The notes beneath the pieces are model-generated. The model saw only the letters and a program-made list of their open reading frames with translations. It was not told the DNA's origin and ran no database searches. From a virus, in the IMG/VR virus record IMGVR_UViG_3300006750_000002, positions 1 to 64,000 of that record: a DNA stretch of 64,000 bases, one strand, 5' to 3'. The position numbers and the translations under genes are program-made. The stretch's first letter is position 1. Each line of letters opens with the position of its first letter. Shown here in pieces: positions 7,913 to 27,695 of the stretch.

Positions 7913-7948
7913 TTTATTTATTGCATAAATACCACAACAATAAAAATC

Positions 7949-8653: not shown

Positions 8654-8656
8654 TAC

Positions 8657-9457
8657 CTATACAGTTTCAGGACTGTATTTTATTTCTCTATCTGTAGTGA
8701 AAAAATACTCTTTCTTAGCCGTCTCAATCCAAAAGTTAGCCTCAGTAGAATCAATTAAGTCCCCCTCTTTATATTTATAATTCCAGAATAGGGAGTCTGG
8801 ACGCATATTTGTGTGTTTATACCCAACTTTAGGGATAGTGAATACTTTTAAGTCATTATACGTCCCTCTCAGTAAGAATTCATATACAAAAGTTAGTCGT
8901 ACACTACCTTTAAATCCACCAACCTCAGTAAACTTTTCTTTATTAATGACCATTCCACTTGTTTGGAAATTAGGGTATCTTAATAAACATTCGTTGTCTA
9001 AGTAACCCATTTTATCACTGAAGTTCATTGCCCATACAGCTTCATTTGTAAAGTTAATGAATTCTCCCTCAGCTGTTACATCAACAACAAGAGGTAGGAA
9101 AACGTCAACATCTTCATAATGTGAAGAATACTTTTCCACATTCTTAAACCAGATAGTAGCGTACTCATCGTCATGTTCCAATACGGAGAACCACTTAGTA
9201 TTAACTTTCCCGACACCGAAATTTATTTGACCCATAAAGGAAGTGTCCCCTACGTTTTCAATAACCTCAACGTCCAATCCGTTAAAATCAAAACTGTCTA
9301 GATAGTTTTTAAGTTTTATGTCATTACTTCTAACGACTATAAGTTTAGGTTTCTCATCGACAGTCTGAGTGGTGATGCTTTTAATAGCATTTTTAAACAG
9401 GTCATCGGTTTGTTCATTTGTTATATGAATAGGTAATATAATAGTTAAATCTTTCAT
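8657..9457 (-). CDS. Glycosyltransferase family 2
   Basis: LTIILPIH start, GQINFGV, WFSVLEHDDEY (DxD region), SGMVINKEKF. Confidence 0.85.
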   Translation of the reverse strand: MKDLTIILPIHITNEQTDDLFKNAIKSITTQTVDEKPKLIVVRSNDIKLKNYLDSFDFNGLDVEVIENVGDTSFMGQINFGVGKVNTKWFSVLEHDDEYATIWFKNVEKYSSHYEDVDVFLPLVVDVTAEGEFINFTNEAVWAMNFSDKMGYLDNECLLRYPNFQTSGMVINKEKFTEVGGFKGSVRLTFVYEFLLRGTYNDLKVFTIPKVGYKHTNMRPDSLFWNYKYKEGDLIDSTEANFWIETAKKEYFFTTDREIKYSPETV

Positions 9458-9459
9458 TT

Positions 9460-10554
9460 TTAGTTTTCTTCGTTTACGGTAAGTTTATCGACAGCTGTCG
9501 CTAGTTCTTCTTCTTTATCTTTCATTAGTTTTTCAATGAACATCTTAATTCCTTTTACTTGATTATCTGTGGTGTATGGTAGGACAGTCTCTTCCATTTT
9601 ATTAAGAAGGTTAGTTGGTACTGAATCCTCTAACCATGTTTTCATGTAAGCGTTAATCACATCAACTATTTGGTTGAACTCGTAACTCCAGAAACCGTTT
9701 TCTTCCTGTAACCACTCTGGTTTAAGGTTAGGTATCTTCCCAACAACTGGGACCCCACTTTTCATACATTCTAATGGGAAAGTACCGAACCCTGAAATGT
9801 CGTCTACCCACACACCTACTGCTACGTCTTGTAATGTGTCAGCGAAAGTAGTGGTGTCCATTCCTCTCATATCTCTAAAAGTCACCCATTTAAATTGTGG
9901 GTATCTAGCATAAAAGGTTTTAACTATTTTCATGGTATCCCTAGGTTCACGAGTATGAATCGCCACTAAAGGTGCCCCAGGTTTATCACTCTTACTAAAT
10001 TTAGAGGAGATAGATGGTGCAATAACCGTAATATCGATGTTTGGGAAAACAGATAAGATGTATTCTTTTGATATTTCTGATGTGGTAATCACATGAGTAT
10101 ACCCATAGTTAATCCACTGTACACCAGGTTGTAACATCTCAAATATGTAATCGTAGGACTGACATAATACTACTTTTGTACAAGCCATTTCTTTAGTTTG
10201 TTCCATTACATGACCAAACAATTCAGGAACAATTAGGACATCTGCTGGACCTACAGAAAGGTCACCAGAACTAACACACGCGTGTGGTAGGGATGAATAT
10301 TCTTCACCTAACCACTCACTAATGGACATCCATTCACCATTTTGTGAATCGTTAATTTTATAGTCTTCATTTTCGTGTAAGATAAATGCGTTGTAACCAT
10401 CCTCCTGTAAACACTTTACTAACTCATAGTTATATGCGATAGATGCTTTAGGATTTCCTTTACTGTCTTGGGTTAGAATAAAAATTTTAGACTCCTTCCC
10501 TTTAACTAGTTGTAAGGACTCCTCAATTTTTTGTACATTAATGTTTTGTGCCAT
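9460..10554 (-). CDS. Glycosyltransferase (GT-B fold, GT4-like)
   Basis: C-terminal GFGTFPLECMKSGVPVVG matches the GT-B E-x-FG-x-P-x-EAM-x-G-x-PV motif. Confidence 0.8.
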   Translation of the reverse strand: MAQNINVQKIEESLQLVKGKESKIFILTQDSKGNPKASIAYNYELVKCLQEDGYNAFILHENEDYKINDSQNGEWMSISEWLGEEYSSLPHACVSSGDLSVGPADVLIVPELFGHVMEQTKEMACTKVVLCQSYDYIFEMLQPGVQWINYGYTHVITTSEISKEYILSVFPNIDITVIAPSISSKFSKSDKPGAPLVAIHTREPRDTMKIVKTFYARYPQFKWVTFRDMRGMDTTTFADTLQDVAVGVWVDDISGFGTFPLECMKSGVPVVGKIPNLKPEWLQEENGFWSYEFNQIVDVINAYMKTWLEDSVPTNLLNKMEETVLPYTTDNQVKGIKMFIEKLMKDKEEELATAVDKLTVNEEN

Positions 10555-10565
10555 TTTAATTATTT

Positions 10566-10904
10566 TTAATTTACTTCTTTTATTATTTTATATTCAATTA
10601 AGGTGTTGAAAGATAATTTAAATGGAAAACTCAAATTATCAAGACTTTTATACCCCATCTTTTCATCTATTTCCTCATTTGTGGAAAGTATTACGTCTAA
10701 AAATAACCTTAACATTTCATATTTTACAGGATTGATAGCGAACTCTGCTTTAAATTCACCATCATCATTTTCTTCTTCTACGTTATACTGTTCGTTATCT
10801 AACTTTATGAACCCCATCATCTCATCTAGGTCTACCACCATTTTACTACCCAAAATTTCAACCTGGTATTCTTTAAGTGAACTCATATCTTTCAATATGC
10901 TCAT
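10566..10904 (-). CDS. Hypothetical protein
   Basis: 112-aa ORF in operon. Confidence 0.65.
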   Translation of the reverse strand: MSILKDMSSLKEYQVEILGSKMVVDLDEMMGFIKLDNEQYNVEEENDDGEFKAEFAINPVKYEMLRLFLDVILSTNEEIDEKMGYKSLDNLSFPFKLSFNTLIEYKIIKEVN

Positions 10905-11460
10905 TTTCTATTAAATCTTTTATAGAAGAAACGTAAAGAATGTTCCCATGGGGACCCTTATTTTCTTTATCACACTCTTCTTGGTTTATTTTTATATACT
11001 CTACCTCTTTATTCTCACTAATCTTTTCATTATTGGTGATAATTATATCCGCTCTTGTATTTACTGTTTTAAAGTCTTCTAATGGGAAAAACTCCACATT
11101 ATCTACCAAGATACCCATTCTCGCTAAAAACATTAACGTTGCGGGTTTAGACTTCTCAATCTCATTAGAAAATATAACTATATGATGTCGGTCTCTGTAT
11201 TTCTTATATAATTCATTAACCATAAAAGAGGCACCTTCTTCACATTCGTTAGAATACCCAAAAATCCTCATGGGACATTCTACATACATATATTCAATTA
11301 AATCCTCCTTAGAGTCGAACCCTAGATATTCTTGTAGTCCTTCACCCTTATATTCTTCTCCTAATTCTTTTTCTAAATTATCCGCTTTATAAACCAATAT
11401 TGTTTTACTGGTAATGTCTCTAATCACATCATTTAATTCTATGTATATATTTTTTTTCAT
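10873..11460 (-). CDS. HAD-fold 5'(3')-nucleotidase-like protein, catalytic motif degenerate
   Basis: IYIELNDVIRD occupies the DxD motif I position; overall layout like NT5C-type phage proteins. Confidence 0.5.
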   Translation of the reverse strand: MKKNIYIELNDVIRDITSKTILVYKADNLEKELGEEYKGEGLQEYLGFDSKEDLIEYMYVECPMRIFGYSNECEEGASFMVNELYKKYRDRHHIVIFSNEIEKSKPATLMFLARMGILVDNVEFFPLEDFKTVNTRADIIITNNEKISENKEVEYIKINQEECDKENKGPHGNILYVSSIKDLIENEHIERYEFT

Positions 11461-11498
11461 GATATAAAAAATAGTTTAAACCCCAAAGTAGTAAACGA

Positions 11499-12161
11499 TT
11501 AATAACCAGTTAATAATGTTAAGACTTCGTCTATAGCTTGGTGCCTATGATTGTCTTCTAAAACACACTTAAAAACAAAATTAGATGTTTGGATTTTAGG
11601 CACTTCATGTATTGCGGAATAGTTTTTATCCTTTAAATCAATTTGTTGGTTATCTCCACAAAATATCATGGTAGAATTTTTACCTAATCTTCCTAAAGCC
11701 ATATTTAACTGAGACTTAGTTAAATTTTGGAATTCGTCTACTATAACCACCGAGTTTTCAAAGGTCCTCCCTCGAAAATGAGCTAATGAAACCAGTTCTA
11801 TAGATTCATCTTCTTCTAACTTTGCAAGAATTTGGGGCTTGTTATACACTTTTCTCATATTACTTCTAATGGGAACTAACCAGGGTTCCATTTTTTCTTT
11901 TTCGGAACCAGGTAAAAATCCATTATCTTCCGTAGATACGGTAGGTCGTGTTATTATAATCTTATTAACCGTTCTTTTGAAAAACATATCTAAGGCTGTT
12001 TGACAAGCTAATAATGTTTTACCACTTCCCGCTTTTCCCACAATAAAGTTAAATGGGTGGGTTAATATCGCGGCTTTTGATTTTTTTTGTTCAGGAGATA
12101 AGGTTATAGAAAATTTTACTGCTCCTTTAGGTGGAGCCTTATTTACGTTCTGTTTAGCCAT
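11499..12161 (-). CDS. phoH: PhoH-family ATPase
   Basis: GKAGSGKTLLA, IIITRP, GFLPG, RGRTF, VDEFQN, GDNQQID. Confidence 0.95.
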   Translation of the reverse strand: MAKQNVNKAPPKGAVKFSITLSPEQKKSKAAILTHPFNFIVGKAGSGKTLLACQTALDMFFKRTVNKIIITRPTVSTEDNGFLPGSEKEKMEPWLVPIRSNMRKVYNKPQILAKLEEDESIELVSLAHFRGRTFENSVVIVDEFQNLTKSQLNMALGRLGKNSTMIFCGDNQQIDLKDKNYSAIHEVPKIQTSNFVFKCVLEDNHRHQAIDEVLTLLTGY

Positions 12162-12272
12162 ATAAGTTTTTATGCTAAGTTAACCCTATCTTATTGAAAG
12201 TGTATAGTGCAGTTAATGAACCTCTATTGGGTAGTATAATCATTATCACTAGTATCTGACTATATAACCAAT

Positions 12273-12437
12273 TCACGCATTAAGTATACTACCGTCTTGG
12301 CCAATAATAAAGTGTCTAACTGATTGTTTTTTAACAAATGACGTTGCCTCACCAAGAGTGTCAAAAGTCTTTATTAGTGTGAAAGGGACATATGGTTCCA
12401 TGTGACCATACGAAACGGAATCGAATATTCTATACAT
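12273..12437 (-). CDS. Small hypothetical protein (54 aa, MYRIFDSVSYGHMEPY...), not in ORF track
   Basis: Manual translation; ATG 3 nt after the fcl stop, fills the gap. Confidence 0.55.
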   Translation of the reverse strand: MYRIFDSVSYGHMEPYVPFTLIKTFDTLGEATSFVKKQSVRHFIIGQDGSILNA

Positions 12438-12440
12438 AAT

Positions 12441-13385
12441 TTATTTTCTTACTTTATCATAATTATTAACAAACCATTCAATAGTTTCTTTTAAACCATC
12501 TTCAATCGGTGTAAATTTAAAATCTGGTAGATACGATAATAGTTTTGAGTTGTCAGTTGGTTTTCTAAACTGACCATCAGGTTTACTGTCGTTCCAAACA
12601 ACTTCACCGTCAAACCCCATTATATCAACAATCAAATCAACAACATATTGTATTGATACCTCTTCGGATGTTGATAGGATTATTGGTTCCTCTTCCTCGT
12701 AATTATCTAAAACCCATTCTGTCAGTTTAGCGACATCTTTATTATAAATGAATTCCCTTAGTGGTTTACCAGAACCCCAAACTTCAAATGGTTTGTTATC
12801 TCGTTTGGCTATGTAGCACTTATGTATTAGTGATGGTATTACATGACCACGCTCCAAATTAAAATTATCGTTAATACCATATACATTGGTTGGTATAACG
12901 CATTTATAATTCAGACCATATTGTTCTCTATAAGCTCTAACCTGAACTTCTGCCATTCTCTTTGCATATGCATAACCGTCATTAGATTCGTGTGGTGGAC
13001 CTAAATGTATCTTATTCTCAGTAAGAGGATATTCAACATCATCTGGGAATATGCACGTAGATAGAAAGACCACCATATTCTTAATACCAAATTTTCTAGC
13101 AGCTTCTATGACGTTAGTATTCATCATAATGTTGTCGTAGAAGAACTCACCTTTATGTGTCATGTTGTAACCCACACCACCAACCTTGGCGGCACAATGG
13201 ATTATTCGGTCTACTGGTTCTGGTGTGCTTGGTGCTTTTGGACCGTTAACGGTATAATACCTAAGTAGTTTTTCCACGTCTGTTTGGTTTCTTAGGTCAC
13301 ATAACCCAGACGTTAACTTTAGTGAGTCACCACCAAATTGCGAACCTATTAACCCGTTTGAACCTGTTACTAATAATCTACCCAT
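12441..13385 (-). CDS. fcl: GDP-L-fucose synthase
   Basis: VTGSNGLIGS, IHCAAKVGG, FLSTCIFP, YAYAKR, PTNVYG, WGSGKPLREF, KPDGQFRK; adjacent to gmd. Confidence 0.95.
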   Translation of the reverse strand: MGRLLVTGSNGLIGSQFGGDSLKLTSGLCDLRNQTDVEKLLRYYTVNGPKAPSTPEPVDRIIHCAAKVGGVGYNMTHKGEFFYDNIMMNTNVIEAARKFGIKNMVVFLSTCIFPDDVEYPLTENKIHLGPPHESNDGYAYAKRMAEVQVRAYREQYGLNYKCVIPTNVYGINDNFNLERGHVIPSLIHKCYIAKRDNKPFEVWGSGKPLREFIYNKDVAKLTEWVLDNYEEEEPIILSTSEEVSIQYVVDLIVDIMGFDGEVVWNDSKPDGQFRKPTDNSKLLSYLPDFKFTPIEDGLKETIEWFVNNYDKVRK

Positions 13386-14370
13386 CTGAACTATCTTTAT
13401 AATACTCTAACCAATAATCAATCATTTCACTAATCATCATTTCAAATGTATATTTCGGTTCCCAGTTTAGTTCTTTTCTTAGTTTAGATGAGTCACCTTT
13501 AAGGTCCCGTAATTCTTCTGGTCTAAAATGTTTTTCTGCAGCTTCAATATAATCTTCATAACTTAATCCTAAACTAGAAAATGTATACTCACATAAATCT
13601 CTGACAGAATGAGATATTCCTGTAGCACACACATAATCATCTGGGGCATCTGATTGTAAAATTAACCACATAGCCTCAACGTAGTCCTTTGCGTGCCCCC
13701 AATCCCTAGTTGCATCTAAATTTCCTAAATATAATTTATCTTGTAAACCTAATTTAATTCTGACCGCAGCCTTAACTACTTTATTGGTTACAAAATTAGT
13801 TCCTCTTCTTGGTGATTCATGATTAAATAATATTCCATTGGAAATAAACATATTATAAGAATTCCTATAATTTCTACTTATATTATAAGAAAATACTTTA
13901 GCACACCCATAAGGTGATACTGGGGATAAAGGTGTTGTTTCTCTTTGGTACCCATCGTCATCAATGTTATTACCAAACATTTCAGATGAACTTGCTTGGT
14001 ATATTTTTGAATGTGGTGACACCATTCTAATCGCCTCTAACAGATTAAGTGTCCCTAATCCTGTTACATTAGCGGTATATATTGGTTGGTCAAAACTGAC
14101 CCTTACATGTGATTGAGCCGCTAAATTATATATTTCATTTGGTTGAACCTCTTTTAAAACTCGTATTAAGGATGACATATCAGTTAAATCAGCGTATTCT
14201 AAATTAATTTTACCTGATGAACATAAATGTTCTATCCTTGTTGATTGTGTTTCGGATACGGAATTTCTCTTTACTGTGCCCCATACTTCATATTCTTTTT
14301 CTATTAAAAATTCTGCAAGATATGAACCATCTTGTCCGTTAATTCCCGTAATTAAAACTTTTTTATTCAT
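13378..14370 (-). CDS. gmd: GDP-mannose 4,6-dehydratase
   Basis: LITGINGQDGSYLAEFL, YNLAAQSHV, YQASSSEMFG, SPYGCAK, GILFNHESPRRG, LGNLDATRDWGHAKDYVEAMW. Confidence 0.97.
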   Translation of the reverse strand: MNKKVLITGINGQDGSYLAEFLIEKEYEVWGTVKRNSVSETQSTRIEHLCSSGKINLEYADLTDMSSLIRVLKEVQPNEIYNLAAQSHVRVSFDQPIYTANVTGLGTLNLLEAIRMVSPHSKIYQASSSEMFGNNIDDDGYQRETTPLSPVSPYGCAKVFSYNISRNYRNSYNMFISNGILFNHESPRRGTNFVTNKVVKAAVRIKLGLQDKLYLGNLDATRDWGHAKDYVEAMWLILQSDAPDDYVCATGISHSVRDLCEYTFSSLGLSYEDYIEAAEKHFRPEELRDLKGDSSKLRKELNWEPKYTFEMMISEMIDYWLEYYKDSSDG

Positions 14371-15019
14371 ATCTAATTATATATTTTTTTACCCCACTAT
14401 TGTTCAAATAATTTATAAATCTTTGATTATCTTCCTTGGTTAATGAATTACTATGAAAATTCAATTTCTTCCCTTTGGTTTTAGAAACTCTACCTTTATC
14501 ACCTGAAATTATTTCTTTTTTACCTGTATTGTCATAAACATTTATAGATTCATTAAACAATTCTTCATAATTGTCCATAAAAATACCCAACTTTTTTTCA
14601 TCTAAAATATTTAAAAATTTTAAAATCTTTTCTATGTTATTCTTGGGTTGGGTTAATAGGTCTTCGTAATAAATTAATATTTTATTGCCTTTATGATTGT
14701 GAAAAGATTTTATTAAATCCATAAACCACTTTAAATCATCATCGGTAAATTTATTTTTATGTCTCATAATAGCTTCCTTTGGGTTTCTAACTATTAGAAT
14801 TAAGTTTTCATTAGGTTTAATATTAGAATACCAATGATTTTTAAAAAGTATGTAATCAGTACCAGAAACATGACTTAAAGTGTCCTTATTAACTAAATTA
14901 ACATAGATAGGTTTATCTTCTTTGCTCATACCTTTAGTTGGTTTACCAGAAAACCATTCCACAATAAACCTAACCCAATGATTACCTGACCTAGGATAAG
15001 ATATTAAATGATTGTTCAT
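14363..15019 (-). CDS. Sulfotransferase (Sulfotransfer_1-like)
   Basis: 5'-PSB SYPRSGNHWVR and 3'-PB IVRNPKEA; YYEDL. Confidence 0.8.
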   Translation of the reverse strand: MNNHLISYPRSGNHWVRFIVEWFSGKPTKGMSKEDKPIYVNLVNKDTLSHVSGTDYILFKNHWYSNIKPNENLILIVRNPKEAIMRHKNKFTDDDLKWFMDLIKSFHNHKGNKILIYYEDLLTQPKNNIEKILKFLNILDEKKLGIFMDNYEELFNESINVYDNTGKKEIISGDKGRVSKTKGKKLNFHSNSLTKEDNQRFINYLNNSGVKKYIIRYE

Positions 15020-15599
15020 AATTAAAATTTATTAAATCTATTTTACAATTTTTAGATACTATATCTATTAAATTATTGTTAACGTAATACTCTCTATAAT
15101 CTTTATTATTACTAACGTTGACTTTAGGTATATTAATTTCAAAACCAAGTAGGTCAGTTAATTTATCGTTAATTTCATACATATCTAAAGTATAGTCAAC
15201 CATTAGTTGGTTATTTTGATATATGTAATCTGATTGGTTTCTCCAACCTTGATGTTTTAATTTTTGGGGTGTGTTTTTTAAAATATCTAAACATTCTTCA
15301 AATGTTTTATCCTTTAATAATTCATAATCTGGGTGTTTACCGGCTCTAGCCTTATCTTCTTTTGCGTGCCAATAACTTTTATCCATTTTAGCGTATTCAT
15401 AACAAGAAACAACCCTATCCCAAGGGTTTCTAATAACACTTATTTTTTTATAATTTTCCCATTTATTAGGGTACTTGTTTTTATAATAACTCCATCCGTG
15501 ATGACCAATGTCTACCATCTCTAAAGTGTTTGTTATCGCAGTACCAGCGTTTTTAGGTATGTGAACAAAAATTAATTTATATTTATCAGATATTGGCAT
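14991..15599 (-). CDS. Sulfotransferase family 2 (carbohydrate sulfotransferase-like); likely start MPISDK
   Basis: FVHIPKNAGTAI and VIRNPWDRVVSCY motifs. Confidence 0.85.
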   Translation of the reverse strand: MPISDKYKLIFVHIPKNAGTAITNTLEMVDIGHHGWSYYKNKYPNKWENYKKISVIRNPWDRVVSCYEYAKMDKSYWHAKEDKARAGKHPDYELLKDKTFEECLDILKNTPQKLKHQGWRNQSDYIYQNNQLMVDYTLDMYEINDKLTDLLGFEINIPKVNVSNNKDYREYYVNNNLIDIVSKNCKIDLINFNYEQSFNILS

Positions 15600-15606
15600 A
15601 ATCGAA

Positions 15607-16140
15607 TTATTTAATTGCTTCAACATTTAGACTCATAAGAATACCATTATCCTTATCCATATGAGGTATATACGCTTGCGAATAATCGTCAATATCCGAA
15701 TGCTCAGTTGTTCTCCAATCCCATAACTTAACATCTTTAAATCCTATAAATTCTAGGTCATCTTTTAAGGTGTTAAAATCAAACGCTATATAATGGTAGT
15801 TATATTCATATGTTTGACCACCATAAAGGAATCCCATAAGACTTTTTAATGGATAACCGGAATTATACATAGTAACAACATTTTCAAAATCAGGTACAGA
15901 TATCCTTAACACACCACCATTAGATAATACAGTGTGCCATCTCTTAAGTGCCGAAAGGTACTCGTCACGACCGAAATGTTCTAAAACATGACATACATAT
16001 ATCAAATCAATAGAGTTATCTTCAATAGAATTTAATTCACCAACATCATCAATAATATCAGCACCTAAATCTAATCTTATATCTATATTAATAAAACCCT
16101 TTAATATTTTATGCCCACAACCTAAATGTAATTTTTTCAT
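15607..16140 (-). CDS. SAM-dependent methyltransferase (type 11-like)
   Basis: LHLGCG motif I, DLIYVCHVLEH, LSNGGVLRISVPD. Confidence 0.85.
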   Translation of the reverse strand: MKKLHLGCGHKILKGFINIDIRLDLGADIIDDVGELNSIEDNSIDLIYVCHVLEHFGRDEYLSALKRWHTVLSNGGVLRISVPDFENVVTMYNSGYPLKSLMGFLYGGQTYEYNYHYIAFDFNTLKDDLEFIGFKDVKLWDWRTTEHSDIDDYSQAYIPHMDKDNGILMSLNVEAIK

Positions 16141-16862: not shown

Positions 16863-16867
16863 AGGTT

Positions 16868-18438: not shown

Positions 18439-18700
18439 AATCTAACCAAAATTTATCTATTTCTTTTTTATAATAACGTTTTATTGTTTATATTACTTCT
18501 TCGTCCATAACTTTTCTAAAACTTTTACTATTGGTTCTATTAATATATGGTAGACTATCCTCAGTTAAACCCAACCTAGAATTTAATTTTATAAAATCAT
18601 CATTTAAATTTTCATAATCTAATAGGGTGTCTACTATAATATCATCTTTTTCATCACACACATACTTGTTAATAGTCCATATAGTTCTGTGGCTATGGGT
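18428..18700 (-). pseudogene. 3' remnant of a family-2 sulfotransferase, fused to the upstream methyltransferase and interrupted by a TAA
   Basis: IIVDTLLDYENL...LPYINRTN...MDEEVI*TIKRYYKKEIDKFWLDYEL* parallels the C-terminus of ORF 20037-20636 (LVDKVFRLEEL...[24 protein letters not shown]). Confidence 0.7.
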
Positions 18701-20036: not shown

Positions 20037-20636
20037 TTAAAATTCGTAGTTGAATAGCTCTATATCTTTAGCGTAAACCTCAGCAATGATTCCTTTGGTT
20101 TCCTCATCGTAATAATCCTTGTAATCAATGTGTGAGTTATCACTTTGGTTTATAACCTGTAGGTTCGGTACCATAACTTTAAACTCTTCATTTGTGGCTA
20201 ACTCTTCTAACCTGAATACCTTATCAACCAATACCTTACCAGAGGTATCACAAAGATATTTGTGTTGAGCTTCCCAACCGTGGTGTTTGAACACCTTTGG
20301 GTTCTCTTTTAGTTTGTGTATAGCGTCCGTAAAGCTCATATCTTTCATCACATTATAGTCTGGGTGCGTACCATCCCTCTTAAAACCTTTAACAGAGTGC
20401 CAGTAACTTTCAGCCATCTTAGCGTACTCATAGTTGGAGACCGTTCTTGACCATGGATTACGAACCACACCGAACTTGGTGAAGGTATCCCATTCCGTTG
20501 GTAAACCTCTCATGTAAAATTGTGGGTAATGATGTCCAATTAGTGTGAACGCCATACCTTCAGCTTTACTTATAGCTGTACCACCATTCTTAGGTACGTG
20601 AATGAATATTAACTTATGTTTATGTGATATTGGCAT
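20037..20636 (-). CDS. Sulfotransferase family 2, paralog of 14991-15599
   Basis: MPISHKHKLIFIHVPKNGGTAI, VVRNPWSRTVSNY. Confidence 0.85.
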   Translation of the reverse strand: MPISHKHKLIFIHVPKNGGTAISKAEGMAFTLIGHHYPQFYMRGLPTEWDTFTKFGVVRNPWSRTVSNYEYAKMAESYWHSVKGFKRDGTHPDYNVMKDMSFTDAIHKLKENPKVFKHHGWEAQHKYLCDTSGKVLVDKVFRLEELATNEEFKVMVPNLQVINQSDNSHIDYKDYYDEETKGIIAEVYAKDIELFNYEF

Positions 20637-20744
20637 CTCTTACTAATCTATCATAGTTCTTAGGTGACTCGCAACAAGTATTCCTTATACCAATAAGTTT
20701 AGACCATTCAAATACCTTCATATTAACATACATAACACTTTTAA

Positions 20745-20834
20745 TTATAAAGTCAATTTTTTGTAGGCCTCTAATAATTCTTTTGGCGTTTGACCCCAAT
20801 TACATGAAAATGCTATTTTAATATCTTTTTTCAT
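20745..20834 (-). pseudogene. Truncated 5' end of a GT10-like gene (29 aa)
   Basis: MKKDIKIAFSCNWGQTPKELLEAYKKLTL* aligns by eye with the N-terminus KIYFINGWGEPNPTLNARYSKQTP of ORF 19197-20036. Confidence 0.55.
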
Positions 20835-20835
20835 T

Positions 20836-21495
20836 TTAATTTAACCCACTTTTGTTTTTAACCGTATTAAAATCTCTTATCATCCATTCATAAGTTTCAG
20901 AAACAATATTAGTAATATCACTTAGGCCAGGTTGTTGTATGGCATAGATTGGGTCCATTACAAAAGATTGACCTCTTCTTTTGACTATATGGTTATCTAA
21001 AACAGTATCTACAATATTGTATCCTCTACTCGTAGAGCTAGTCCATGCTTCAATCATATAGTCGAAAGCTTGGGCATTAGCCGCATATGCATGCGTAGTA
21101 AATGCAAAATTAGTTTTTAATATTCTATCGGTAACCCTAGTAAACCTTCCAGTTCGTGGACACATTGTTACACCCACATAAAATAAATCCCATTTACCAA
21201 TACTTTTTAAATCTTTAAAGGCTTCTTCTAAACGTTTAATATCTGTTTCTACAAATAAAACATCATCTTCAAAAATTAAAACATTCTCTAATCCGTCTTC
21301 CTTACATTTTTTAATTAAAGTAAGATGAGATAAAGTACAACCAAGATTACCATCAGTATGTTTAATTCCTGACCATCTTTCTACTTGGTCTAGAATATTT
21401 ATTTTTTCAAACTCTTTTTGAGCCAGTTCCCATCGGTCTACCCGTTCATCTAAGTTAATGCAATATACCTTATCAAAATATTCATTTATACCCAT
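20836..21495 (-). CDS. Glycosyltransferase family 25
   Basis: YCINLDERVDRW, GCTLSH, LIFEDDV, TTHAY. Confidence 0.85.
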   Translation of the reverse strand: MGINEYFDKVYCINLDERVDRWELAQKEFEKINILDQVERWSGIKHTDGNLGCTLSHLTLIKKCKEDGLENVLIFEDDVLFVETDIKRLEEAFKDLKSIGKWDLFYVGVTMCPRTGRFTRVTDRILKTNFAFTTHAYAANAQAFDYMIEAWTSSTSRGYNIVDTVLDNHIVKRRGQSFVMDPIYAIQQPGLSDITNIVSETYEWMIRDFNTVKNKSGLN

Positions 21496-22262
21496 TTGTC
21501 AAATAATTTTTTAGTTTCTACTATATCGTAGAATTTATCTGGTGCTCCCCCCATTAGTCCTCGTTGGGGATACTCCCACTTTTCATAGTAGTCGACCAAT
21601 TTTTTTATATCTTTAAAGTTAGGTGAGGCGGAGGAATTCTGTAGTTTTATTGCAATATTTTTACGTACATAACTCATATGGTGCATTTCTATTTCTTCTC
21701 TAGTAAAAATTTTGCACTTACCCCCATCCATCCGTCTAGTGGGGTCAACCAGTGCCGGAAATGGAAGACCTAAGACATATTGTTTGCCTCTTCTAATTTT
21801 ATATAATAAGGACACATAATAATCTTCTTTTGGGTCTAAGCGATAAATAGGTTCCTTATAATATGTTGTCATCTGACAAGCACCAGAATCAAAATCCCCT
21901 TCTTCCATAGTAATTTTCATCGTTTTAAATTGTTCATCAGTGTAGAATTCGTCTGAATCCATGGCCATATGATGGGTACACTTCTGACCTTCTGATAAAA
22001 ATAAACCAACATTTCTTTTAGTAATTTCATTATAGTGACCACCTTTGAGGGGCTGGGGTTTATACCTATAGAGTTCATCTACCAAACCATCATTTTTAAG
22101 TTTTTTAAGGAGGGGCACTAATTCTTTACTACAAGGATTACCAAAGTTAGAAATCTCCTGGTATACTACTGAAATGTAATCTACGTTTTCTCGGACACTT
22201 CTTATAGAATTCTCCAATAACTCTTCTCCATCAAATATGTTATAACTTATCCCTAATTTCAT
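21486..22262 (-). CDS. GT2-like glycosyltransferase
   Basis: LLENSIRSVRENVDYI, KRNVGL, MAMDSDEFY. Confidence 0.65.
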   Translation of the reverse strand: MKLGISYNIFDGEELLENSIRSVRENVDYISVVYQEISNFGNPCSKELVPLLKKLKNDGLVDELYRYKPQPLKGGHYNEITKRNVGLFLSEGQKCTHHMAMDSDEFYTDEQFKTMKITMEEGDFDSGACQMTTYYKEPIYRLDPKEDYYVSLLYKIRRGKQYVLGLPFPALVDPTRRMDGGKCKIFTREEIEMHHMSYVRKNIAIKLQNSSASPNFKDIKKLVDYYEKWEYPQRGLMGGAPDKFYDIVETKKLFDKWV

Positions 22263-23797
22263 GTTGTTAATGTTTTATATTTATTTTTTATGATTAAAGA
22301 CAAATTATTTTTATCTATATTAGAAAAATAATTATGACACATTCCACTTCCTATTATTTTAGGTAATAGTCTTTGTGTATAATCTTCGTATTCCCTTTTT
22401 AATTTTTCTTTGTCGTTATTTCTTGTTTGACTTTCATAGTGATATGCGACTGCACTCCCAACCAAATAATTTTTAAGTCTTTTGTTTAAACACTCAATGT
22501 TTAATTCTACGTCTTCGAAACATTCATTATATGTTTCTTTAAACCCCCCTATTTGTTTAAATAGGTTTTTTTTAATCATCATAAACGCCGCCGTATTCCC
22601 AAAAACTTCTTTTCTTCCTTGATGGTAGTTAAAGTAACTACCAATACCATGATGACTTACTCTAATATTATATTTGTCGTCTACAAATGCGATTACTCCC
22701 GAGTGTTGGATTTTATTGTCACCAAAATGAAGTCTTATTCCTACAGTTCCTGATTGTTTGTTTGTGTTAAATACCTCAACCATCTGAGTAATAGCATTAT
22801 TTAACAACTTTATGTCATTATTACAAAATAATAACAATTCTACATCATCTTCTACGTGACTAGACACCATATCATTATTAATACTCGCAAAATTATAATA
22901 ATTATATTCTATTAATTTGATGCTGGGTTTATCTTCAATATAGTTTTTTATTTCTTCTAATTCTTCTAAAGACGAACCTGTATCACCTATGTAAATTTTT
23001 AAATTAGGGTAATCATCTACCGTAATTAGAGAATTAACACACTCTTTTAATAGATGAACGTTCCCTTTAGTCGGTATCACCACCCCCACTGTTGGGTTTT
23101 TTTTAAGTTTAATTTTTTTACCCTTTACTAAAATAGGTGGAGTTAATGAGTAAGGTAAATTTTTAGAGTGGTTTTCCACAAACTGTCTTCTATTTTTTTC
23201 CCACTCATCATTCGTTTGACCTATAGATTTATGGGTTATAGTAATGTTAGTAATTACTCCTACTTTGGTTCCACCTAAATGGTTTGTAAAACAAAAGTCC
23301 ACCTCATAAAAATGAAATCCTTTTATGTTTTCGTCAAAAGAATTTTTTAATCTATCTTTATGTACTACAAAAAATAAACCATCAACTAATATACTTTCTA
23401 ATATTTCATCACCAAATTTAGGTGAGTAAACACTATTCCAAGTTTTACCTTCATGAGTGTGTTTAACTTGACCTAACATTAACGAGGGATTTTGCCACCA
23501 TCTTCCTGTTGCTTGCATTTCAGTTGTCCCAGCGACACCCAGGATGCCAAATTTACTATTGTTAAAATGTGAGATAAGTTTTTTACCCCAATTCTTGGTA
23601 TTAAATATAATGTCATTATGACAAAATACTACAATATCGTGTTTACAAGATTCTAATGCACGGTTATAGAACTGGGTTAGGGGTTCCCCTTTATTTATAT
23701 ATTCTATTATCTCCACACCCTTTAACCCCACAGTTTTTTTAATGTGGTCCGAGTGTTCAAGCATTGGTTCGGGGGTACAGTAGACAACACTTATCAT
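22259..23797 (-). CDS. Two-domain glycosyltransferase family 2
   Basis: N-domain VVFCHNDIIF, VDGLF, FHFYEVDFC; C-domain VVIPTK, LLFCNNDI, GNTAAFMMI, CFEDVEL. Confidence 0.9.
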   Translation of the reverse strand: MISVVYCTPEPMLEHSDHIKKTVGLKGVEIIEYINKGEPLTQFYNRALESCKHDIVVFCHNDIIFNTKNWGKKLISHFNNSKFGILGVAGTTEMQATGRWWQNPSLMLGQVKHTHEGKTWNSVYSPKFGDEILESILVDGLFFVVHKDRLKNSFDENIKGFHFYEVDFCFTNHLGGTKVGVITNITITHKSIGQTNDEWEKNRRQFVENHSKNLPYSLTPPILVKGKKIKLKKNPTVGVVIPTKGNVHLLKECVNSLITVDDYPNLKIYIGDTGSSLEELEEIKNYIEDKPSIKLIEYNYYNFASINNDMVSSHVEDDVELLLFCNNDIKLLNNAITQMVEVFNTNKQSGTVGIRLHFGDNKIQHSGVIAFVDDKYNIRVSHHGIGSYFNYHQGRKEVFGNTAAFMMIKKNLFKQIGGFKETYNECFEDVELNIECLNKRLKNYLVGSAVAYHYESQTRNNDKEKLKREYEDYTQRLLPKIIGSGMCHNYFSNIDKNNLSLIIKNKYKTLTT

Positions 23798-24765
23798 TAT
23801 AAATAGGATTTTACAGTTTCAGTGATGCCTAAATTAAAGTTAACCTCAGGTTTCCACCTTAATTTAGTGTAAATCTTATCAAAGTTTATGGAATGTCTTA
23901 GGTCGTGACCAGGGTGGTCGTTAACGAAGGAGATTAGCCTAGAAGAGGTACCTGGGACCAAACCCTTAATGTTATCATAAGTTAAACAAATTTTCTTAAT
24001 TAATTCTAAATTAGTTAATTCGGTATTGCTACCAACATTGTACCTTTCACCACCTTTTCCTGAATGGAAGACCTTATCCAACGCTTTGACATGGTCTTCT
24101 ACGTGTATCCAATCCCTTACGTTGCTACCATCACCATAAACGGGAATTTGATTATTTTTTTTGAGGCAGTCAATTACTTTTGGTATTAGTTTCTCTTGAT
24201 GTTGGTTTGGCCCATAATTGTTAGAGCAGTGTGTGATACACCCAGGCAATCCATGGGTTTTATATGCCGCTAACACTAAAAAGTCAGCAGATGCTTTAGA
24301 AGCGGAATAAGGAGAACTAGGAGAAAAAGGTGTAAATTCATAAAAAGTTCTACCATCGTTAAAATCTAAACTACCATAAACTTCATCGGTGGAAACCTGT
24401 AAAAATTTAGCTACTTTATATTTTAATGAAGAGTTTATCAACGTCTGAGTACCAATAACGTTAGTCACTAAAAAAATGTCCTCGTCCTCTATTGAGTTAT
24501 CTACGTGGGTTTCTGCCGCAACATTAATAACACCATCGAAGTTGTGTAAGTCAAAAAGATTGTTTATAAATTTTTTTTTGGAGATGTCTACCTTATAAAA
24601 ATTAATCTTATTAATGTACTCACCCAGATTTTTTTTATTTCCAGCGTATGTTAGTGAGTCGATAACGTGGATGTCATACGTTGGGTATTGGTCTACCATG
24701 TATTTCACCAGGTGAGACCCTATAAAACCAGCTCCTCCAGTTATTAAAATAGTTCTTTTTTGCAT
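23797..24765 (-). CDS. rfbB: dTDP-glucose 4,6-dehydratase
   Basis: ITGGAGFIGSH, DSLTYAGN, AAETHVDNSI, VSTDEVYG, SPYSASKAS, CSNNYGP, YGDGSNVRDWIHVEDH, PGHDLR. Confidence 0.93.
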   Translation of the reverse strand: MQKRTILITGGAGFIGSHLVKYMVDQYPTYDIHVIDSLTYAGNKKNLGEYINKINFYKVDISKKKFINNLFDLHNFDGVINVAAETHVDNSIEDEDIFLVTNVIGTQTLINSSLKYKVAKFLQVSTDEVYGSLDFNDGRTFYEFTPFSPSSPYSASKASADFLVLAAYKTHGLPGCITHCSNNYGPNQHQEKLIPKVIDCLKKNNQIPVYGDGSNVRDWIHVEDHVKALDKVFHSGKGGERYNVGSNTELTNLELIKKICLTYDNIKGLVPGTSSRLISFVNDHPGHDLRHSINFDKIYTKLRWKPEVNFNLGITETVKSYL

Positions 24766-24772
24766 ATTATTT

Positions 24773-25402
24773 TTATTTTATACCAGTACTCCCGAATCCC
24801 TCACTCTCTCGATTAGAGCTACTCAACCCACTAACTTTATTTAATTCACCCCACACTTTATCCAACACTGGTGACACTACCCCCTGAGCTATGCGGTCAC
24901 CATTTACTATGGTAAATGGTTCGTTACCTAAATTAACTAGTATTATTGAAACCTCACCCCTATAGTTACTGTCTACAGTTCCAGGGGTATTAAGTACCGT
25001 AATACCATGTTTTAAAGCTAAACCACTACGTGGACGGACCTGTAATTCATAACCCCTAGGAACCTCAAAGTAAAGGCCTGTAGAAATTAATTTTCTATCA
25101 TGTGGGTTAATGGTGATTCTGTCCTCACCATTTAGATTAGCTCTAAAGTCGAAACCACTATCACCTTCATGGAAATAATCGGGGTCCGTATTAGTACTTT
25201 TATTTAAAAACTTTATTTGTATCTTAGGTTTAGTTATCTCCCCTTGGTTATTTGGGTACACCACACTTTCTTTTATTTTGGCGAATTTCTTTAAAGCTTT
25301 TTCAGTTTCTGGTGAAGTTTCTGACTGAGGAATTAAATTAGTAATCTCATTAATTGTTTCTTTTAATTTCTTAATGTCATTTATTATTCTTTCTCTACCC
25401 AT
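24773..25402 (-). CDS. dut: Trimeric dUTPase with N-terminal extension
   Basis: SGFDF, QVRPRSGLA, NTPGTVDSNYRGE, GDRIAQ, RESEGFGSTG. Confidence 0.95.
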   Translation of the reverse strand: MGRERIINDIKKLKETINEITNLIPQSETSPETEKALKKFAKIKESVVYPNNQGEITKPKIQIKFLNKSTNTDPDYFHEGDSGFDFRANLNGEDRITINPHDRKLISTGLYFEVPRGYELQVRPRSGLALKHGITVLNTPGTVDSNYRGEVSIILVNLGNEPFTIVNGDRIAQGVVSPVLDKVWGELNKVSGLSSSNRESEGFGSTGIK

Positions 25403-26121
25403 TGTGTTATTTTTTTTACTAAATTTATTGTAGCGATAACATCATTTTCACAATATTCTTTTATGTTATCATCCCTATTTACCCCTAACGATTTTTCCTT
25501 TCCTTCAACCCAATCATAGTAATACTTATGCATATTCTCCCCTTTTAGGTCACCGTCTTTTGGTGAAATAATGTCTAATGAAGCACAAATTAAATCTAAG
25601 GAAGACAGTCCTATGTAGGAATTAAATCCCCACACCTCTTTAGTGTCTACCACCCTGGTTTCCCAAGGTTTATCGTTATATGTCGGGATTATTTTGGGTA
25701 TGCTGAACCCATGGATTAATAACCGTTTACCGATATAAGGTAAATCAAAACTTTTAACATTATGTCCGCATAATTTAAAATTTAATTTATCTATCCTACC
25801 TAAAAGGGTTATTAGGTTGGTTAGAATACCTTTTTCATCTCCAACATAACTATCTAGTTTAGTTTTACCATCAGGAAGTAAAAAACCTACAGATACACAA
25901 ATTATTTTACCAAATTCAGGTAAAAGAGCTGCTTTTTTAATAAACATTTCATTCATCGAGAGCTCTTCGTCTTTAGGGTACCTACGTTTACAGTAATCGT
26001 ATCCTGTTTTTTCCCATATATTACATAACTGTGGGAATTCTGATTGTAGAGAATTTAAATCTTTCGTAATCCCCACAGTTTCTATATCTAGAAATAAAAG
26101 TTTATTTATATCTTTAATCAT
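25384..26121 (-). CDS. 3'-5' exonuclease (PolB-like/DnaQ superfamily)
   Basis: LFLDIETV, PEFGKIICVSVG, CGHNVKSFDLPY, YCENDV. Confidence 0.85.
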   Translation of the reverse strand: MIKDINKLLFLDIETVGITKDLNSLQSEFPQLCNIWEKTGYDYCKRRYPKDEELSMNEMFIKKAALLPEFGKIICVSVGFLLPDGKTKLDSYVGDEKGILTNLITLLGRIDKLNFKLCGHNVKSFDLPYIGKRLLIHGFSIPKIIPTYNDKPWETRVVDTKEVWGFNSYIGLSSLDLICASLDIISPKDGDLKGENMHKYYYDWVEGKEKSLGVNRDDNIKEYCENDVIATINLVKKITQWVEKE

Positions 26122-26123
26122 TG

Positions 26124-26351
26124 TTAATAATAATTAGGAGTTAGTGTTGGGTGTAATATATCCTCATAGGGTGCTTTAACTAACGATACAATTTCTGAAT
26201 CTCTTGTATCTTCAGCTAGGTACTTACTCATTCGGGTAGTAGCCTCATAGACAGACTCAGATTCTACAATATATTTAAATTTTTTAACTTTTGGGTTGCC
26301 ATTTCCGTCTAGGACTCCCGTTTCAAATGCTACAATTGCTTGGTAATACAT
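26124..26351 (-). CDS. Small hypothetical protein (resembles Bacteroidota DUF4494)
   Basis: G-x-PK-x-K-x-KYIVESESVYEA pattern. Confidence 0.45.
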   Translation of the reverse strand: MYYQAIVAFETGVLDGNGNPKVKKFKYIVESESVYEATTRMSKYLAEDTRDSEIVSLVKAPYEDILHPTLTPNYY

Positions 26352-26362
26352 ATTTTTCTTTT

Positions 26363-27586
26363 TTAATGTGATTTTATTATTTGTTTATATAATTCGGCTC
26401 GTTTCTCGGTTACTCTATCGATATGGTATTTTTGTACTGACTCATAAAGCCTTTCACCTAAATCCTCAACCAATGCCGGGTTGGTCACTAATCTTTTTAT
26501 GTGTTGGGCCCATAGTTTGTGGTTACGAGAAGAGTCAATAAGTAGAGAATTCCCCTTATCGTTAAATGTCCCCCCTTTTTCATAGGCATTAATACAATCT
26601 ATCTGGTAAGGCCCAAAATCTTGAGCAATTAAGGCTTTTTTATGAAATCCAGCTTCTATTACTTTCAATTGTGATTTAACCCTATTGAATGTATGGTGTC
26701 TCAGAGGAGCTAAACTAATGTCAAACTTATTGTAATTACTCGCGTACGTTGTGATAGGTTTGGTCCAGACCCTACGATAAGGCGTACTAGAATCACCGAA
26801 TTCCTCCCCAAACTTGAACTGCATTAACTGTGACATTTGACGTTCGTCTACTATTTTATGGTTCCCAGTGAATATTTTCTCATACTCAAACCAAACCGAC
26901 TCCTTTGGTCGTATCGGTCTAGTTTTTTCTTCCCCCGTTTGTTGGTTCATTTCTGTAATACTTCCTCGTGTGTCAAACCCACAAAGTACGAACTGAATTT
27001 GGTCTTTTAAAGGTGATAATTTATTTACCACACCCCTCAGTATTTCCAGGTCAGCTAAGTGAGAAGACCCACCTAACCACCCTACCCTAATACGGTCACT
27101 CTCTTCTGCATTAGACATAAACTGTTTTTCACTAGGGTCTACACTATTTGGTAGTACGTAAACGTTTTTGCATAGTTTTTTAATTTCTTCAGCAAATAAA
27201 GGTGTGGTTGTAGTAACGTAATCAGCTAATTTTAAATTATCTGTTATTAGTTTATCCATTCCTTTATTACGAATTATCATATATGCTGGATGTTCTGGAT
27301 TGGGTAACCAGTAATCATCTAAGTCCATAATAGCTGGGATACCCAATTTTTTAATCCTAGGGATAGTCTGCTGGGATAAATTGTAGTCAGGATGTAGGGT
27401 TCTATGGTAATGGATTAAATCATATTGTTTAAGGTAATTATCATCGTTAAGTCTTGGGTTGTAATCAATATCTACCCAAAAATCATCCCCGAAGTTCTCC
27501 TGTAATTTTAAATGTTGGTCGATAGACCTAAATTTGGATACCCCCGTACGGTCACTAGGTAAAACTAATACTTTGTATTTTGACAT
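26363..27586 (-). CDS. Glycosyltransferase (GT-B fold, GT4-like)
   Basis: RVGWLGGSSHLADL, DISLAPL, FNRVKSQLKVIEAG, LIAQDFGPY. Confidence 0.85.
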   Translation of the reverse strand: MSKYKVLVLPSDRTGVSKFRSIDQHLKLQENFGDDFWVDIDYNPRLNDDNYLKQYDLIHYHRTLHPDYNLSQQTIPRIKKLGIPAIMDLDDYWLPNPEHPAYMIIRNKGMDKLITDNLKLADYVTTTTPLFAEEIKKLCKNVYVLPNSVDPSEKQFMSNAEESDRIRVGWLGGSSHLADLEILRGVVNKLSPLKDQIQFVLCGFDTRGSITEMNQQTGEEKTRPIRPKESVWFEYEKIFTGNHKIVDERQMSQLMQFKFGEEFGDSSTPYRRVWTKPITTYASNYNKFDISLAPLRHHTFNRVKSQLKVIEAGFHKKALIAQDFGPYQIDCINAYEKGGTFNDKGNSLLIDSSRNHKLWAQHIKRLVTNPALVEDLGERLYESVQKYHIDRVTEKRAELYKQIIKSH

Positions 27587-27612
27587 CTATTCTTTCTATT
27601 TTAGCTGTGAAA

Positions 27613-27641
27613 AAGGTACGGACAATACACTGAATAGTCAA
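27613..27641 (-). promoter_or_regulatory. Sigma70-like promoter TTGACT-N17-TACCTT
   Basis: Sits between the terminator and the start of the GT/exonuclease/dut operon. Confidence 0.45.
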
Positions 27642-27644
27642 ACA

Positions 27645-27672: not shown

Positions 27673-27695
27673 AAAACACTATATTTGTAATAACT

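Follow-up and report, generated by a model that had tools for sequence, protein, structure and literature searches.

Which molecule receives the glycan that a phage builds with its own enzymes, when those enzymes come without any visible means of export? This question is raised by a locus at positions 8657-27586 of IMG/VR virus record IMGVR_UViG_3300006750_000002, which lies in a window comprising the first 64 kb of this 190,908-bp viral contig (estimated completeness 60%, GC content ~34%), where the genes are tightly packed and nearly all on the minus strand from 30366 down to 920. A sequence-only reading had taken the locus for a glycosylation system flanked by virion genes, in which a cytoplasmic acceptor, either virion proteins or modified DNA bases, receives a fucosylated, methylated and sulfated glycan. 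Here we find that conserved glycosyltransferases (GTs) frame a hypervariable cassette, that the encoded proteins lack membrane parts, that the gene run probably begins at a promoter-like site of the class found before the DNA polymerase gene, and that a short sequence motif is enriched in large putative virion proteins of the same lineage. Cytoplasmic glycosylation of the phage's own virion proteins is in our judgement the best reading of the locus, and one for which the chances seem evenly divided.

In IMG/VR, 505 stretches were related to the locus through the sigma-like gene at the end of the gene run and about 200 through a GT gene of 407 amino acids (aa) at its other end, on contigs of up to 362 kb. 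We fetched 160 such loci, 80 with the sigma-like gene and 80 with the 407-aa GT gene, and searched them by tblastn with every protein of the window. Among GenBank phages, megablast of the locus gave no close relative, the 266-aa and 364-aa GTs listed below had no tblastn match, and the nearest match of the DNA polymerase, to Salinibacter phages, reached only 26% identity.

Searches with Pfam and NCBIfam, profile searches against the PDB and structure searches together identified seven GT proteins with eight GT domains in the locus, whose enzymes are all encoded on the minus strand. The GTs, together with one candidate, are as follows.

8657-9457, minus strand: core GT-A (GT2-like), 266 aa (Pfam E = 1.6e-4; profile against GT-A structures E = 1.6e-4)
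9460-10554, minus strand: core GT-B, 364 aa, related to AmGGT/Agt (profile of 14 homologues against PDB 8xsg, E = 6.7e-13)
19197-20036, minus strand: GT10 fucosyltransferase (Pfam, C-terminal domain E = 1.8e-10)
20836-21495, minus strand: GT25 (Pfam)
21486-22262, minus strand: candidate GT-A-like protein, 258 aa, conserved, bordering the cassette on the right, with an invariant D-x-D-E
22259-23797, minus strand: core double GT-A, 512 aa (Pfam Glyco_tranf_2_5 E = 1.4e-31, Glycos_transf_2 E = 2.6e-16)
26363-27586, minus strand: core GT-B (GT4-like) fold, 407 aa (AF2 model with a predicted local distance difference test (pLDDT) of 84; Foldseek)

The sequence-only reading had counted about eight GTs (four GT2, two of them tentative, two GT4-like, one GT10 and one GT25). 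That number survives as eight domains in seven proteins, but the GT2 call for a 259-aa protein at 17659-18438 (minus strand) does not, having an E-value of 0.009 and no other backing. Both GT4-like genes, neither of which has a Pfam match, turn out to be of GT-B type: the 364-aa GT by its profile match to 8xsg, and the 407-aa GT by its predicted fold and its Foldseek matches to GlgM, MshA, PglA, BshA and PimA (E = 2e-14 to 1e-11). The 266-aa GT, weak when judged alone, is yet present in 80/80 relatives with an invariant E-x-D-D-E.

The match of the 364-aa GT to 8xsg spans residues 89-335 at low identity. This structure is that of AmGGT, a retaining GT-B glucosyltransferase and close homologue of Agt, being 51-53% identical to Agt proteins, and Agt acts in the cytoplasm, where it extends glucose attached to adhesin proteins (PMC12159676). 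The family of the 364-aa GT comprises 2854 protein clusters, unnamed and all metagenomic. Homologues of the 407-aa GT occur in the cultured coliphage phi92 as gp163/gp164, a homologous GT-B pair that makes this phage a bench model for the family. In phi92 the pair belongs to a cluster of four GTs, gp163-166 (record positions 102200-105376), near endolysin and DNA polymerase genes, for which we found no published function. The 258-aa protein is possibly GT-A-like, with its invariant D-x-D-E. It is 72-76% identical in close relatives and belongs to an atlas viral cluster of 1450 members; its AF2 model has a pLDDT of 57, and no clear fold emerged from profile searches against the PDB, from Foldseek or from a wide structural search.

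Comparison of the related loci revealed an architecture that was absent from the sequence-only reading, in that the locus is not one block. The 266-aa and 364-aa GTs are present in 80/80 and 78/80 of the loci fetched by the sigma-like gene, and the 512-aa and 407-aa GTs in 64/80 and 80/80 of those fetched by the 407-aa GT gene. PhoH, dUTPase and two small proteins are likewise core genes of the lineage across the 160 loci. Since the four GTs are as conserved as these, a function in the phage's own biology fits better than an accessory role in host metabolism. Between the core GTs lies a cassette with few or no homologues in the fetched loci, and the enzymes of nucleotide-sugar supply are encoded on either side of it.

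14363-21495, minus strand: hypervariable cassette, ~7 kb
20037-20636, minus strand: sulfotransferase (Pfam)
18488-19207, minus strand: methyltransferase-like, Methyltransf_24 O-methyltransferase (Pfam)
16868-17683, minus strand: methyltransferase-like, FkbM-like (protein atlas only, template modelling (TM) score 0.75-0.81)
16137-16862, minus strand: methyltransferase-like, DUF268 (Pfam)
15607-16140, minus strand: methyltransferase-like, Methyltransf_11 (Pfam)
14991-15626, minus strand: sulfotransferase (Pfam)
14363-15019, minus strand: sulfotransferase (Pfam)
13378-14370, minus strand: gmd (TIGR01472, 407 bits, cut-off 415)
12441-13385, minus strand: fcl-like epimerase/reductase (NF047922, 225 bits, cut-off 500)
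23797-24765, minus strand: rfbB, dTDP-glucose 4,6-dehydratase (TIGR01181, 384 bits, above the cut-off of 365)

In the order of transcription, the cassette holds GT25, a short open reading frame (ORF), a sulfotransferase, GT10, Methyltransf_24, the 259-aa protein, the FkbM-like protein, DUF268, Methyltransf_11 and two sulfotransferases. A 29-codon ORF after the GT25 gene (20745-20834, minus strand) was considered as a cassette scar and rejected, because its 24-residue match, to the N-terminal end of a relative's island gene, is not significant (E = 0.57).

Five relatives rebuilt over the whole interval all keep one frame, and the variable part differs in each. The frame reads 407-aa GT, small protein, exonuclease, dUTPase, rfbB-like gene, 512-aa GT and 258-aa protein before the variable part, and gmd, PhoH, the 195-aa and 112-aa proteins, the 364-aa GT, the 266-aa GT and sigma after it. 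DNA of the closest relative aligns over 21559-30912 and 5893-12173 at 77-80% identity, as well as over gmd, and shows no alignment over 14368-21248. At the position of the cassette, relatives carry different glycan genes: the variable parts of ~140 loci contain 844 ORFs that fall into 295 clusters, 134 of them singletons, and a Pfam tally of 150 cluster representatives is led by GT2, nucleoside diphosphate (NDP)-sugar epimerases/dehydratases, DegT aminotransferases, and FkbM and other methyltransferases, with GT11, GT10, sulfotransferases, GT7C, UDP-glucose dehydrogenases and GT25 also represented. As judged from these comparisons, the locus has the pattern of a serotype locus, in which a putatively fixed function is combined with rapidly exchanged specificity.

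The tailoring and sugar-supply genes named by the sequence-only reading (gmd, an fcl-like gene, rfbB, three sulfotransferases and four methyltransferase-like genes) were all recovered with Pfam and NCBIfam, and for one of them with the protein atlas. Judging by family, gmd and the fcl-like gene probably supply a GDP-6-deoxyhexose, GDP-L-fucose, although the score of the fcl-like protein lies below its cut-off and its product could be a different GDP-6-deoxyhexose. Across the relatives, rfbB is present in 5/5 close ones and gmd in about half, and the position of fcl shifts. As for the sulfate donor, 3'-phosphoadenosine-5'-phosphosulfate (PAPS), no adenosine-5'-phosphosulfate (APS) kinase was found in the contig.

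How does this enzyme set relate to membranes? With hydrophobic segments defined by a Kyte-Doolittle value of at least 1.6, none was found in the proteins of the locus, save for one borderline stretch in the exonuclease. Wzx (PF01943), phosphoglycosyl transferase (PF02397), WecA/MraY-type (PF00953) and Wzy/ligase (PF04932) families were all missing from the 191-kb contig as well as from four relatives of 93-100% completeness, in searches that were positive in 10-13 of 14 control genomes. Among the island ORFs of the ~140 related loci, 0/844 have at least two hydrophobic segments, ABC-transporter families not having been searched by name. The single candidate for an integral membrane enzyme is a 375-aa protein at genome positions 123831-124958 (plus strand), 96 kb from the locus, which has four hydrophobic segments and no Pfam match, and which is the contig's only multi-segment membrane protein that is neither small nor tail-like. 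The earlier statement that no flippase, polymerase or membrane-anchored enzyme is visible in the window is thus borne out, and the absence of export genes extends to the contig and the four near-complete relatives. Bacterial O-antigen and capsule loci have in common with the phage locus clustered NDP-sugar genes and GTs, and a cassette that varies from strain to strain; they differ in having an initiating phosphoglycosyl transferase, a flippase and a polymerase or ligase, for which the phage genomes lack PF02397 and PF00953, PF01943, and PF04932, respectively.

Candidate acceptors among the phage's own proteins are marked by a motif, [S/T]-G-x-T, which stands out when its counts are compared with shuffles of each protein.

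30392-33214, plus strand: 940-aa Cys-rich conserved protein (14 motifs observed, 1.2 expected)
33240-35414, plus strand: 724-aa fibre-like protein, rich in S, T and G (25 observed, 4.3 expected)
45121-48606, plus strand: tail sheath (11 observed, 2.1 expected)
2153-3718: 521-aa protein (5 observed, 0.7 expected)
Downstream of the window: 2819-aa protein (18 observed, 3.5 expected)
Downstream of the window: 1266-aa protein (12 observed, 3.0 expected)

Seven large putative virion proteins together contain 91 motifs, where about 16 are expected, a 5-6 fold enrichment. The order of the residues matters: 10 of 11 permuted patterns of the same residues give 13-32 occurrences, and the eleventh, TG.[ST], which partly overlaps the motif, gives 58. 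The residue before the motif is V, L, F, I or Y in 42/66 sites. In the sheath, the PHROG match is limited to residues 867-1159, and 10/11 motif sites lie in a long N-terminal extra region, at residues 148-411. The enrichment recurs in 5/5 relatives, with z of 11-12 for homologues of the 940-aa protein and of 4.4-5.9 for non-homologous fibres at the same position, whereas enzymes of at least 300 residues in these five relatives have 0 or 1 motif each and the pooled locus and replication enzymes of the present phage have 2 against 4.9 expected. It is not seen in sixteen T4 virion proteins (15 against 11.5 expected), nor is there a comparable enrichment in all 37 large ORFs of phi92 (26 against 13.1 expected, highest z 3.6), which was rejected as a carrier of the motif despite sharing the GT-B family. 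The motif is therefore a real, order-specific and lineage-specific property of large, mostly unannotated proteins that resemble exposed virion parts, and it could either mark where glycans are attached or be a structural signature of the proteins.

The identity of these proteins bears on the claim that virion genes and a late sigma gene flank the locus, for which no confirmation was found: the flanks have no Pfam or PHROG match, and the sigma call is weak (E about 3e-4). Pfam gave nothing for the putative virion proteins, the 940-aa and 724-aa proteins match no PHROG either, and PHROGs were without a match for ten small or flanking proteins. Further rightward in the window, PHROGs matches mark a B-family DNA polymerase, an SNF2-type helicase and the tail sheath. 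The gene for the 724-aa fibre-like protein has no homologue in any of the 160 related loci, where unrelated genes of 373-694 aa occupy the fibre position beside the conserved 940-aa gene, which adds a second hypervariable spot at a distance of ~12 kb from the cassette.

The timing of expression was approached through sequence signals at the head of the gene run.

27644-27666, minus strand: intrinsic terminator, a 16-nt hairpin followed by a run of 7 T, which closes the upstream late genes
27613-27641, minus strand: promoter-like TTGACT-N17-TACCTT, 26 nt before the 407-aa GT gene and directly after the terminator

A hairpin with a T-run stands at the equivalent place in close relatives, and the TTGAC box is conserved upstream of homologues of the 407-aa GT. 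The TTGACT-N17-TACCTT site is the probable start of the operon. It belongs to a replication-type class, TTGACW-N16-18-TAnnnT, of which one copy (35835-35863, plus strand) lies 32 nt before the DNA polymerase gene. Further copies of this class are found at genome positions 157439-157466 and 129269-129297 (both plus strand), and the class is distinct from the Bacteroidetes-type TTTG...TAnnTTTG sites that precede other genes.

A different, late-type motif, TATTTATA, stands 7-17 nt before many start codons, for example at 29059-29066 (minus strand), 33220-33227, 54541-54548 and 56646-56653 (all plus strand). For 27/64 copies a start on the same strand follows within 40 nt, against 9/64 in reverse orientation. 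It is found 12 nt before the fibre gene (33240), and also before the genes for a 687-aa (54560) and a 1711-aa (56671) protein downstream of the sheath. We take TATTTATA as a candidate late promoter in this lineage. It corresponds to the T4 late box in reverse complement; the T4 late box itself, TATAAATA, was rejected in this role, being neither enriched nor positioned. Within 8657-27586 no TATTTATA lies 7-17 nt before a gene start, and the one copy that comes close (23798-23805) directly adjoins the start codon of the 512-aa GT gene. A generic sigma-70 scan, by comparison, gave promoter-like and terminator-like sites no commoner than in shuffled sequence. To judge by these signals, the locus appears to be expressed with the replication genes, running into the sigma-like gene. 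The argument from position in the sequence-only reading, which rested on a late or virion neighbourhood, is thus weakened, as the operon seems to start behind a terminator with a promoter of the DNA-polymerase type and not with the late motif.

Taken together, how might the locus work? We propose that it is a phage-encoded, membrane-independent glycan assembly line, in which the four conserved soluble GTs (the 266-aa GT-A, the 364-aa Agt-like GT-B, the 512-aa double GT-A and the 407-aa GT-B) would act with the nucleotide-sugar enzymes encoded by rfbB, gmd and, in this phage, the fcl-like gene. The strain-specific cassette would complete the glycan, with GT25 adding a galactose-type sugar, GT10 adding fucose and the four methyltransferase-like enzymes adding O-methyl groups, and the three sulfotransferases would add sulfate from host PAPS. 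The genes would be transcribed with the replication genes from the DNA-polymerase-type promoter, and the enzymes would act in the cytoplasm on exposed virion proteins of the phage, namely on fibres, on the sheath's extra region and on further large structural proteins, perhaps at a hydrophobic-[S/T]-G-x-T site, which would give every strain a glycan serotype of its own. From the genes we infer what the acceptor is, in which order the steps occur and which sugars are used.

The cytoplasmic acceptor proposed by the sequence-only reading is favoured by the absence of export genes from five genomes and of multi-segment proteins from all 844 island ORFs, while its DNA-base option fares badly, as set out below. 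Virion proteins are the better candidates, given that [S/T]-G-x-T is enriched, as a specific trait of this lineage, in its large putative virion proteins, and we count the relationship of the 364-aa GT to AmGGT/Agt, which extends protein-linked glucose, in favour of a protein acceptor. A more specific claim, which we put forward tentatively and consider somewhat unlikely, is that hydrophobic-[S/T]-G-x-T is the attachment site of a cytoplasmic O-glycosylation that is core to an abundant lineage of aquatic jumbo phages, in which the conserved GTs would prime exposed proteins and the cassette would write a strain-specific fucosylated, methylated and sulfated glycan 'serotype', like bacterial O-antigens.

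Several points weigh against glycosylation of virion proteins. Characterised bacterial GT25, GT10 and GT2 enzymes mostly act on lipid-linked lipopolysaccharide (LPS) or O-antigen intermediates, and the absence of an exporter of its own is not proof, since the carrier lipid and exporters of the host could serve the phage as well. The motif might reflect the structure of the lineage's beta-rich virion proteins instead of marking an attachment site, and, apart from the sheath, the motif-rich proteins owe their assignment to the virion to size and composition, plus a late-type promoter for one of them. No protein-priming enzyme is recognisable: the Actinobacillus system, to whose Agt-type GT-B the 364-aa GT is linked here from sequence, primes with the N-glycosyltransferase NGT (GT41), and no GT41/NGT (PF13844) was found in the 191-kb contig, which is ~60% of the genome. 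Finally, the operon's promoter, as read from the DNA, is of the replication type rather than the late motif. This last point does not oppose virion glycosylation, because the soluble GTs of the chlorovirus PBCV-1 are also early genes (PMC5408694).

The alternative that survives best is remodelling of the host surface, which we regard as unlikely. The soluble enzymes would work at the inner face of the membrane on undecaprenyl-linked or lipid A-core-linked intermediates of the host, and the host's flippase, ABC transporter and ligase would see to export, the effect being to block superinfection, to keep progeny from attaching to infected cells and debris, or to deter grazers. Clusters labelled 'LPS' or 'cell-wall modification' in large cyanomyoviruses are commonly interpreted in this way. 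The combination of GT25, GT10, GT2 and GT4 with gmd, fcl and rfbB is typical of O-antigen, lipooligosaccharide and capsule loci, early or middle expression would suit an effect on a living host, and comparable GT sets in cyanophages were read by their authors as host cell-wall modification (PMC12801897). Moreover, transmembrane segments are likewise missing from the peripheral GTs of bacterial pathways, which means that their absence here does not discriminate. Set against this is the lack, in five genomes, of an initiating phosphoglycosyl transferase, flippase, polymerase and ligase, together with the lack of any multi-pass protein in 844 island ORFs, where cassettes of bacterial origin would be expected to bring some. 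Four GTs fixed in a lytic-type lineage with very diverse relatives would also be unusual for a function that has to fit many host glycans, and the lineage-specific motif in putative virion proteins would be left unexplained.

It is improbable, in our view, that the enzymes act in the cytoplasm on something other than virion proteins, whether a non-virion protein of phage or host or a soluble or lipid molecule retained inside the cell, for instance so as to hide something that host defence targets, or that there are two acceptors. Three conserved proteins of the locus (258, 195 and 112 aa) without an assignable function would leave room for such a role, but the hypervariable cassette points to a product under diversifying selection from outside the cell.

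Glycosylated DNA, in which the transferases, and especially the 407-aa GT-B, would modify bases as a shield against restriction, as in T4 with its hydroxymethylcytosine, and the cassette would diversify the DNA glycan, has in its favour that the 407-aa GT-B shares its operon start and promoter class with replication functions and adjoins dUTPase and exonuclease genes, that the DNA glucosyltransferases of T4 are likewise early-expressed GT-B enzymes, and that phage DNA GTs are diverse. The last of these statements follows Pyle et al. 2024, as cited in a passage of PMC12619734. We nevertheless regard it as very improbable and find no support for it: no thymidylate synthase (TS)-family hydroxymethylase or other TS-family gene was found in the 60% complete contig; the TS-family genes of three complete relatives score 321-355 bits as near-full ThyA, and the one read across its specificity site has the canonical P-F-N-I-A-S-Y; a further relative, 93% complete, has no TS-family gene; and TET/JBP were not found, in a search that had no positive control. 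A set of eight GT domains with three sulfotransferases and four methyltransferases points to a long and decorated glycan that exceeds the DNA glycans we know of, and phi92, with its homologous GT-B pair, is not known to have glycosylated DNA.

Not all of the interval serves glycan synthesis, as ~5 kb of 8657-27586 encode PhoH, dUTPase, an exonuclease and small genes without an assigned function. These genes, and the sigma-like gene that follows the locus, are listed here.

7949-8653, minus strand: sigma-like core gene at the end of the run (Sigma70_r2 E = 2.7e-4, TIGR02937 E = 3.5e-4, both below cut-offs)
10566-12161, minus strand: PhoH with two conserved proteins (195 and 112 aa) without a family match (Pfam, PHROGs)
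11499-12161, minus strand: PhoH-like ATPase (PhoH E = 9.5e-51)
24773-25402, minus strand: dUTPase (Pfam), conserved in relatives
25384-26121, minus strand: RNase H-fold/PolB-type 3'-5' exonuclease (Pfam), conserved in relatives
Within 24773-26351, minus strand: small DUF4494-like protein, the third non-glycan gene of this stretch (Pfam), conserved in relatives

The 195-aa and 112-aa proteins are present in 75/80 relatives. Between fcl and PhoH, a 54-codon ORF (12273-12437, minus strand) is a candidate small gene; one relative has a counterpart of 30% identity (E = 9e-4) in its variable region. Outside the locus, directly after the DNA polymerase gene, a 290-aa protein (38629-39501, minus strand) carries a Peptidase_S74 (endosialidase chaperone) domain (E = 6e-9), a domain typical of self-cleaving tail fibres or spikes.

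Chloroviruses and giant viruses are documented to build glycan coats, and among phages this holds, to our knowledge, for no more than a few mycobacteriophages. In the chlorovirus PBCV-1, soluble early GTs without signal peptides or membrane anchors glycosylate the capsid protein in the cytoplasm together with GMD and GMER (PMC5408694), which make GDP-L-fucose, and the glycans are fucosylated and O-methylated (PMC5408694; PMC7826918). PBCV-1 and the phage locus are alike in their soluble GTs and nucleotide-sugar enzymes (in the phage gmd, fcl-like and rfbB), but PBCV-1 is a eukaryotic virus with N-linked glycans and scattered GT genes, whereas the phage has core GTs around one swappable cassette and an acceptor proposed from its genes; the phage locus has three sulfotransferases, and the relevant passages of PMC5408694 describe none. 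In Megavirinae, clade-specific clusters for rare sugars and GTs decorate the surface fibrils (PMC10117803); there, in eukaryotic giant viruses, whole clusters vary by clade, whereas the phage varies a cassette between fixed core GTs. In mycobacteriophages, virions are O-glycosylated, with phage GTs decorating the capsid and tail-tube subunits of a tailed phage (Freeman et al. 2023, as summarised in part of PMC12619734). According to that summary, the system involves few genes, with glycans at protein C-termini, in different hosts and with different GT sets, and no core-plus-hypervariable island, fucose pathway or sulfation is mentioned in it. Comparable in gene content are cyanophages S-SCSM2R, S-SCSM1 and P-SSM2, with GT-rich clusters of 13 GTs including GT10, GT11 and GT25, and NDP-sugar epimerases, which were read, without experiment, as serving host cell-wall modification or DNA glucosylation (PMC12801897). 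Like the locus described here, these clusters, from marine T4-type phages of >200 kb, combine many GTs (in their case GT2, GT10, GT11 and GT25) with NDP-sugar epimerases; they differ in lineage and host, and one of them includes a homologue of the export protein PgaA.

The lineage itself is a large group of uncultured jumbo phages, probably the moraphages, by match to their published description and not by sequence. Moraphages are large aquatic phages with genomes of up to 307 kb, with T4-type structural genes, PolB, a sigma factor, PhoH and dUTPase, with four core GT orthogroups listed without a resolved function, and with predicted Bacteroidota hosts, according to the relevant passages of Perez-Hernandez et al. 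(Arch Virol 2025, PMC12619734). The contig likewise has four core GTs, the sigma-like gene, PhoH, dUTPase, PolB and T4-type tail and head genes, and its Bacteroidetes-type sites (TTTG-N-TAnnTTTG), present before about ten genes, fit the Bacteroidota host predicted in that part of the moraphage paper. The passages of PMC12619734 on glycosyltransferases mention no variable cassette, exporter absence or acceptor motif. Glycans built by phages are thus already known, and the core GTs of the lineage have been noted in print; in those parts of the literature covered here, we did not find the core-plus-cassette architecture, the lineage-wide absence of exporters, the capacity for sulfation and methylation or the candidate motif described.

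Within this lineage, which is represented by hundreds of IMG/VR contigs, the GT machinery is a core feature. Should its glycan prove to sit on the particle, these phages would carry sulfated and methylated sugars that differ from strain to strain, with possible effects on adsorption, on adhesion to marine polysaccharides, on grazing and on decay. The proposal, if true, would be relevant to the behaviour of phage particles in water and would make protein sulfoglycosylation a part of phage biology, and the motif defines the peptides to look for in viral-fraction proteomes.

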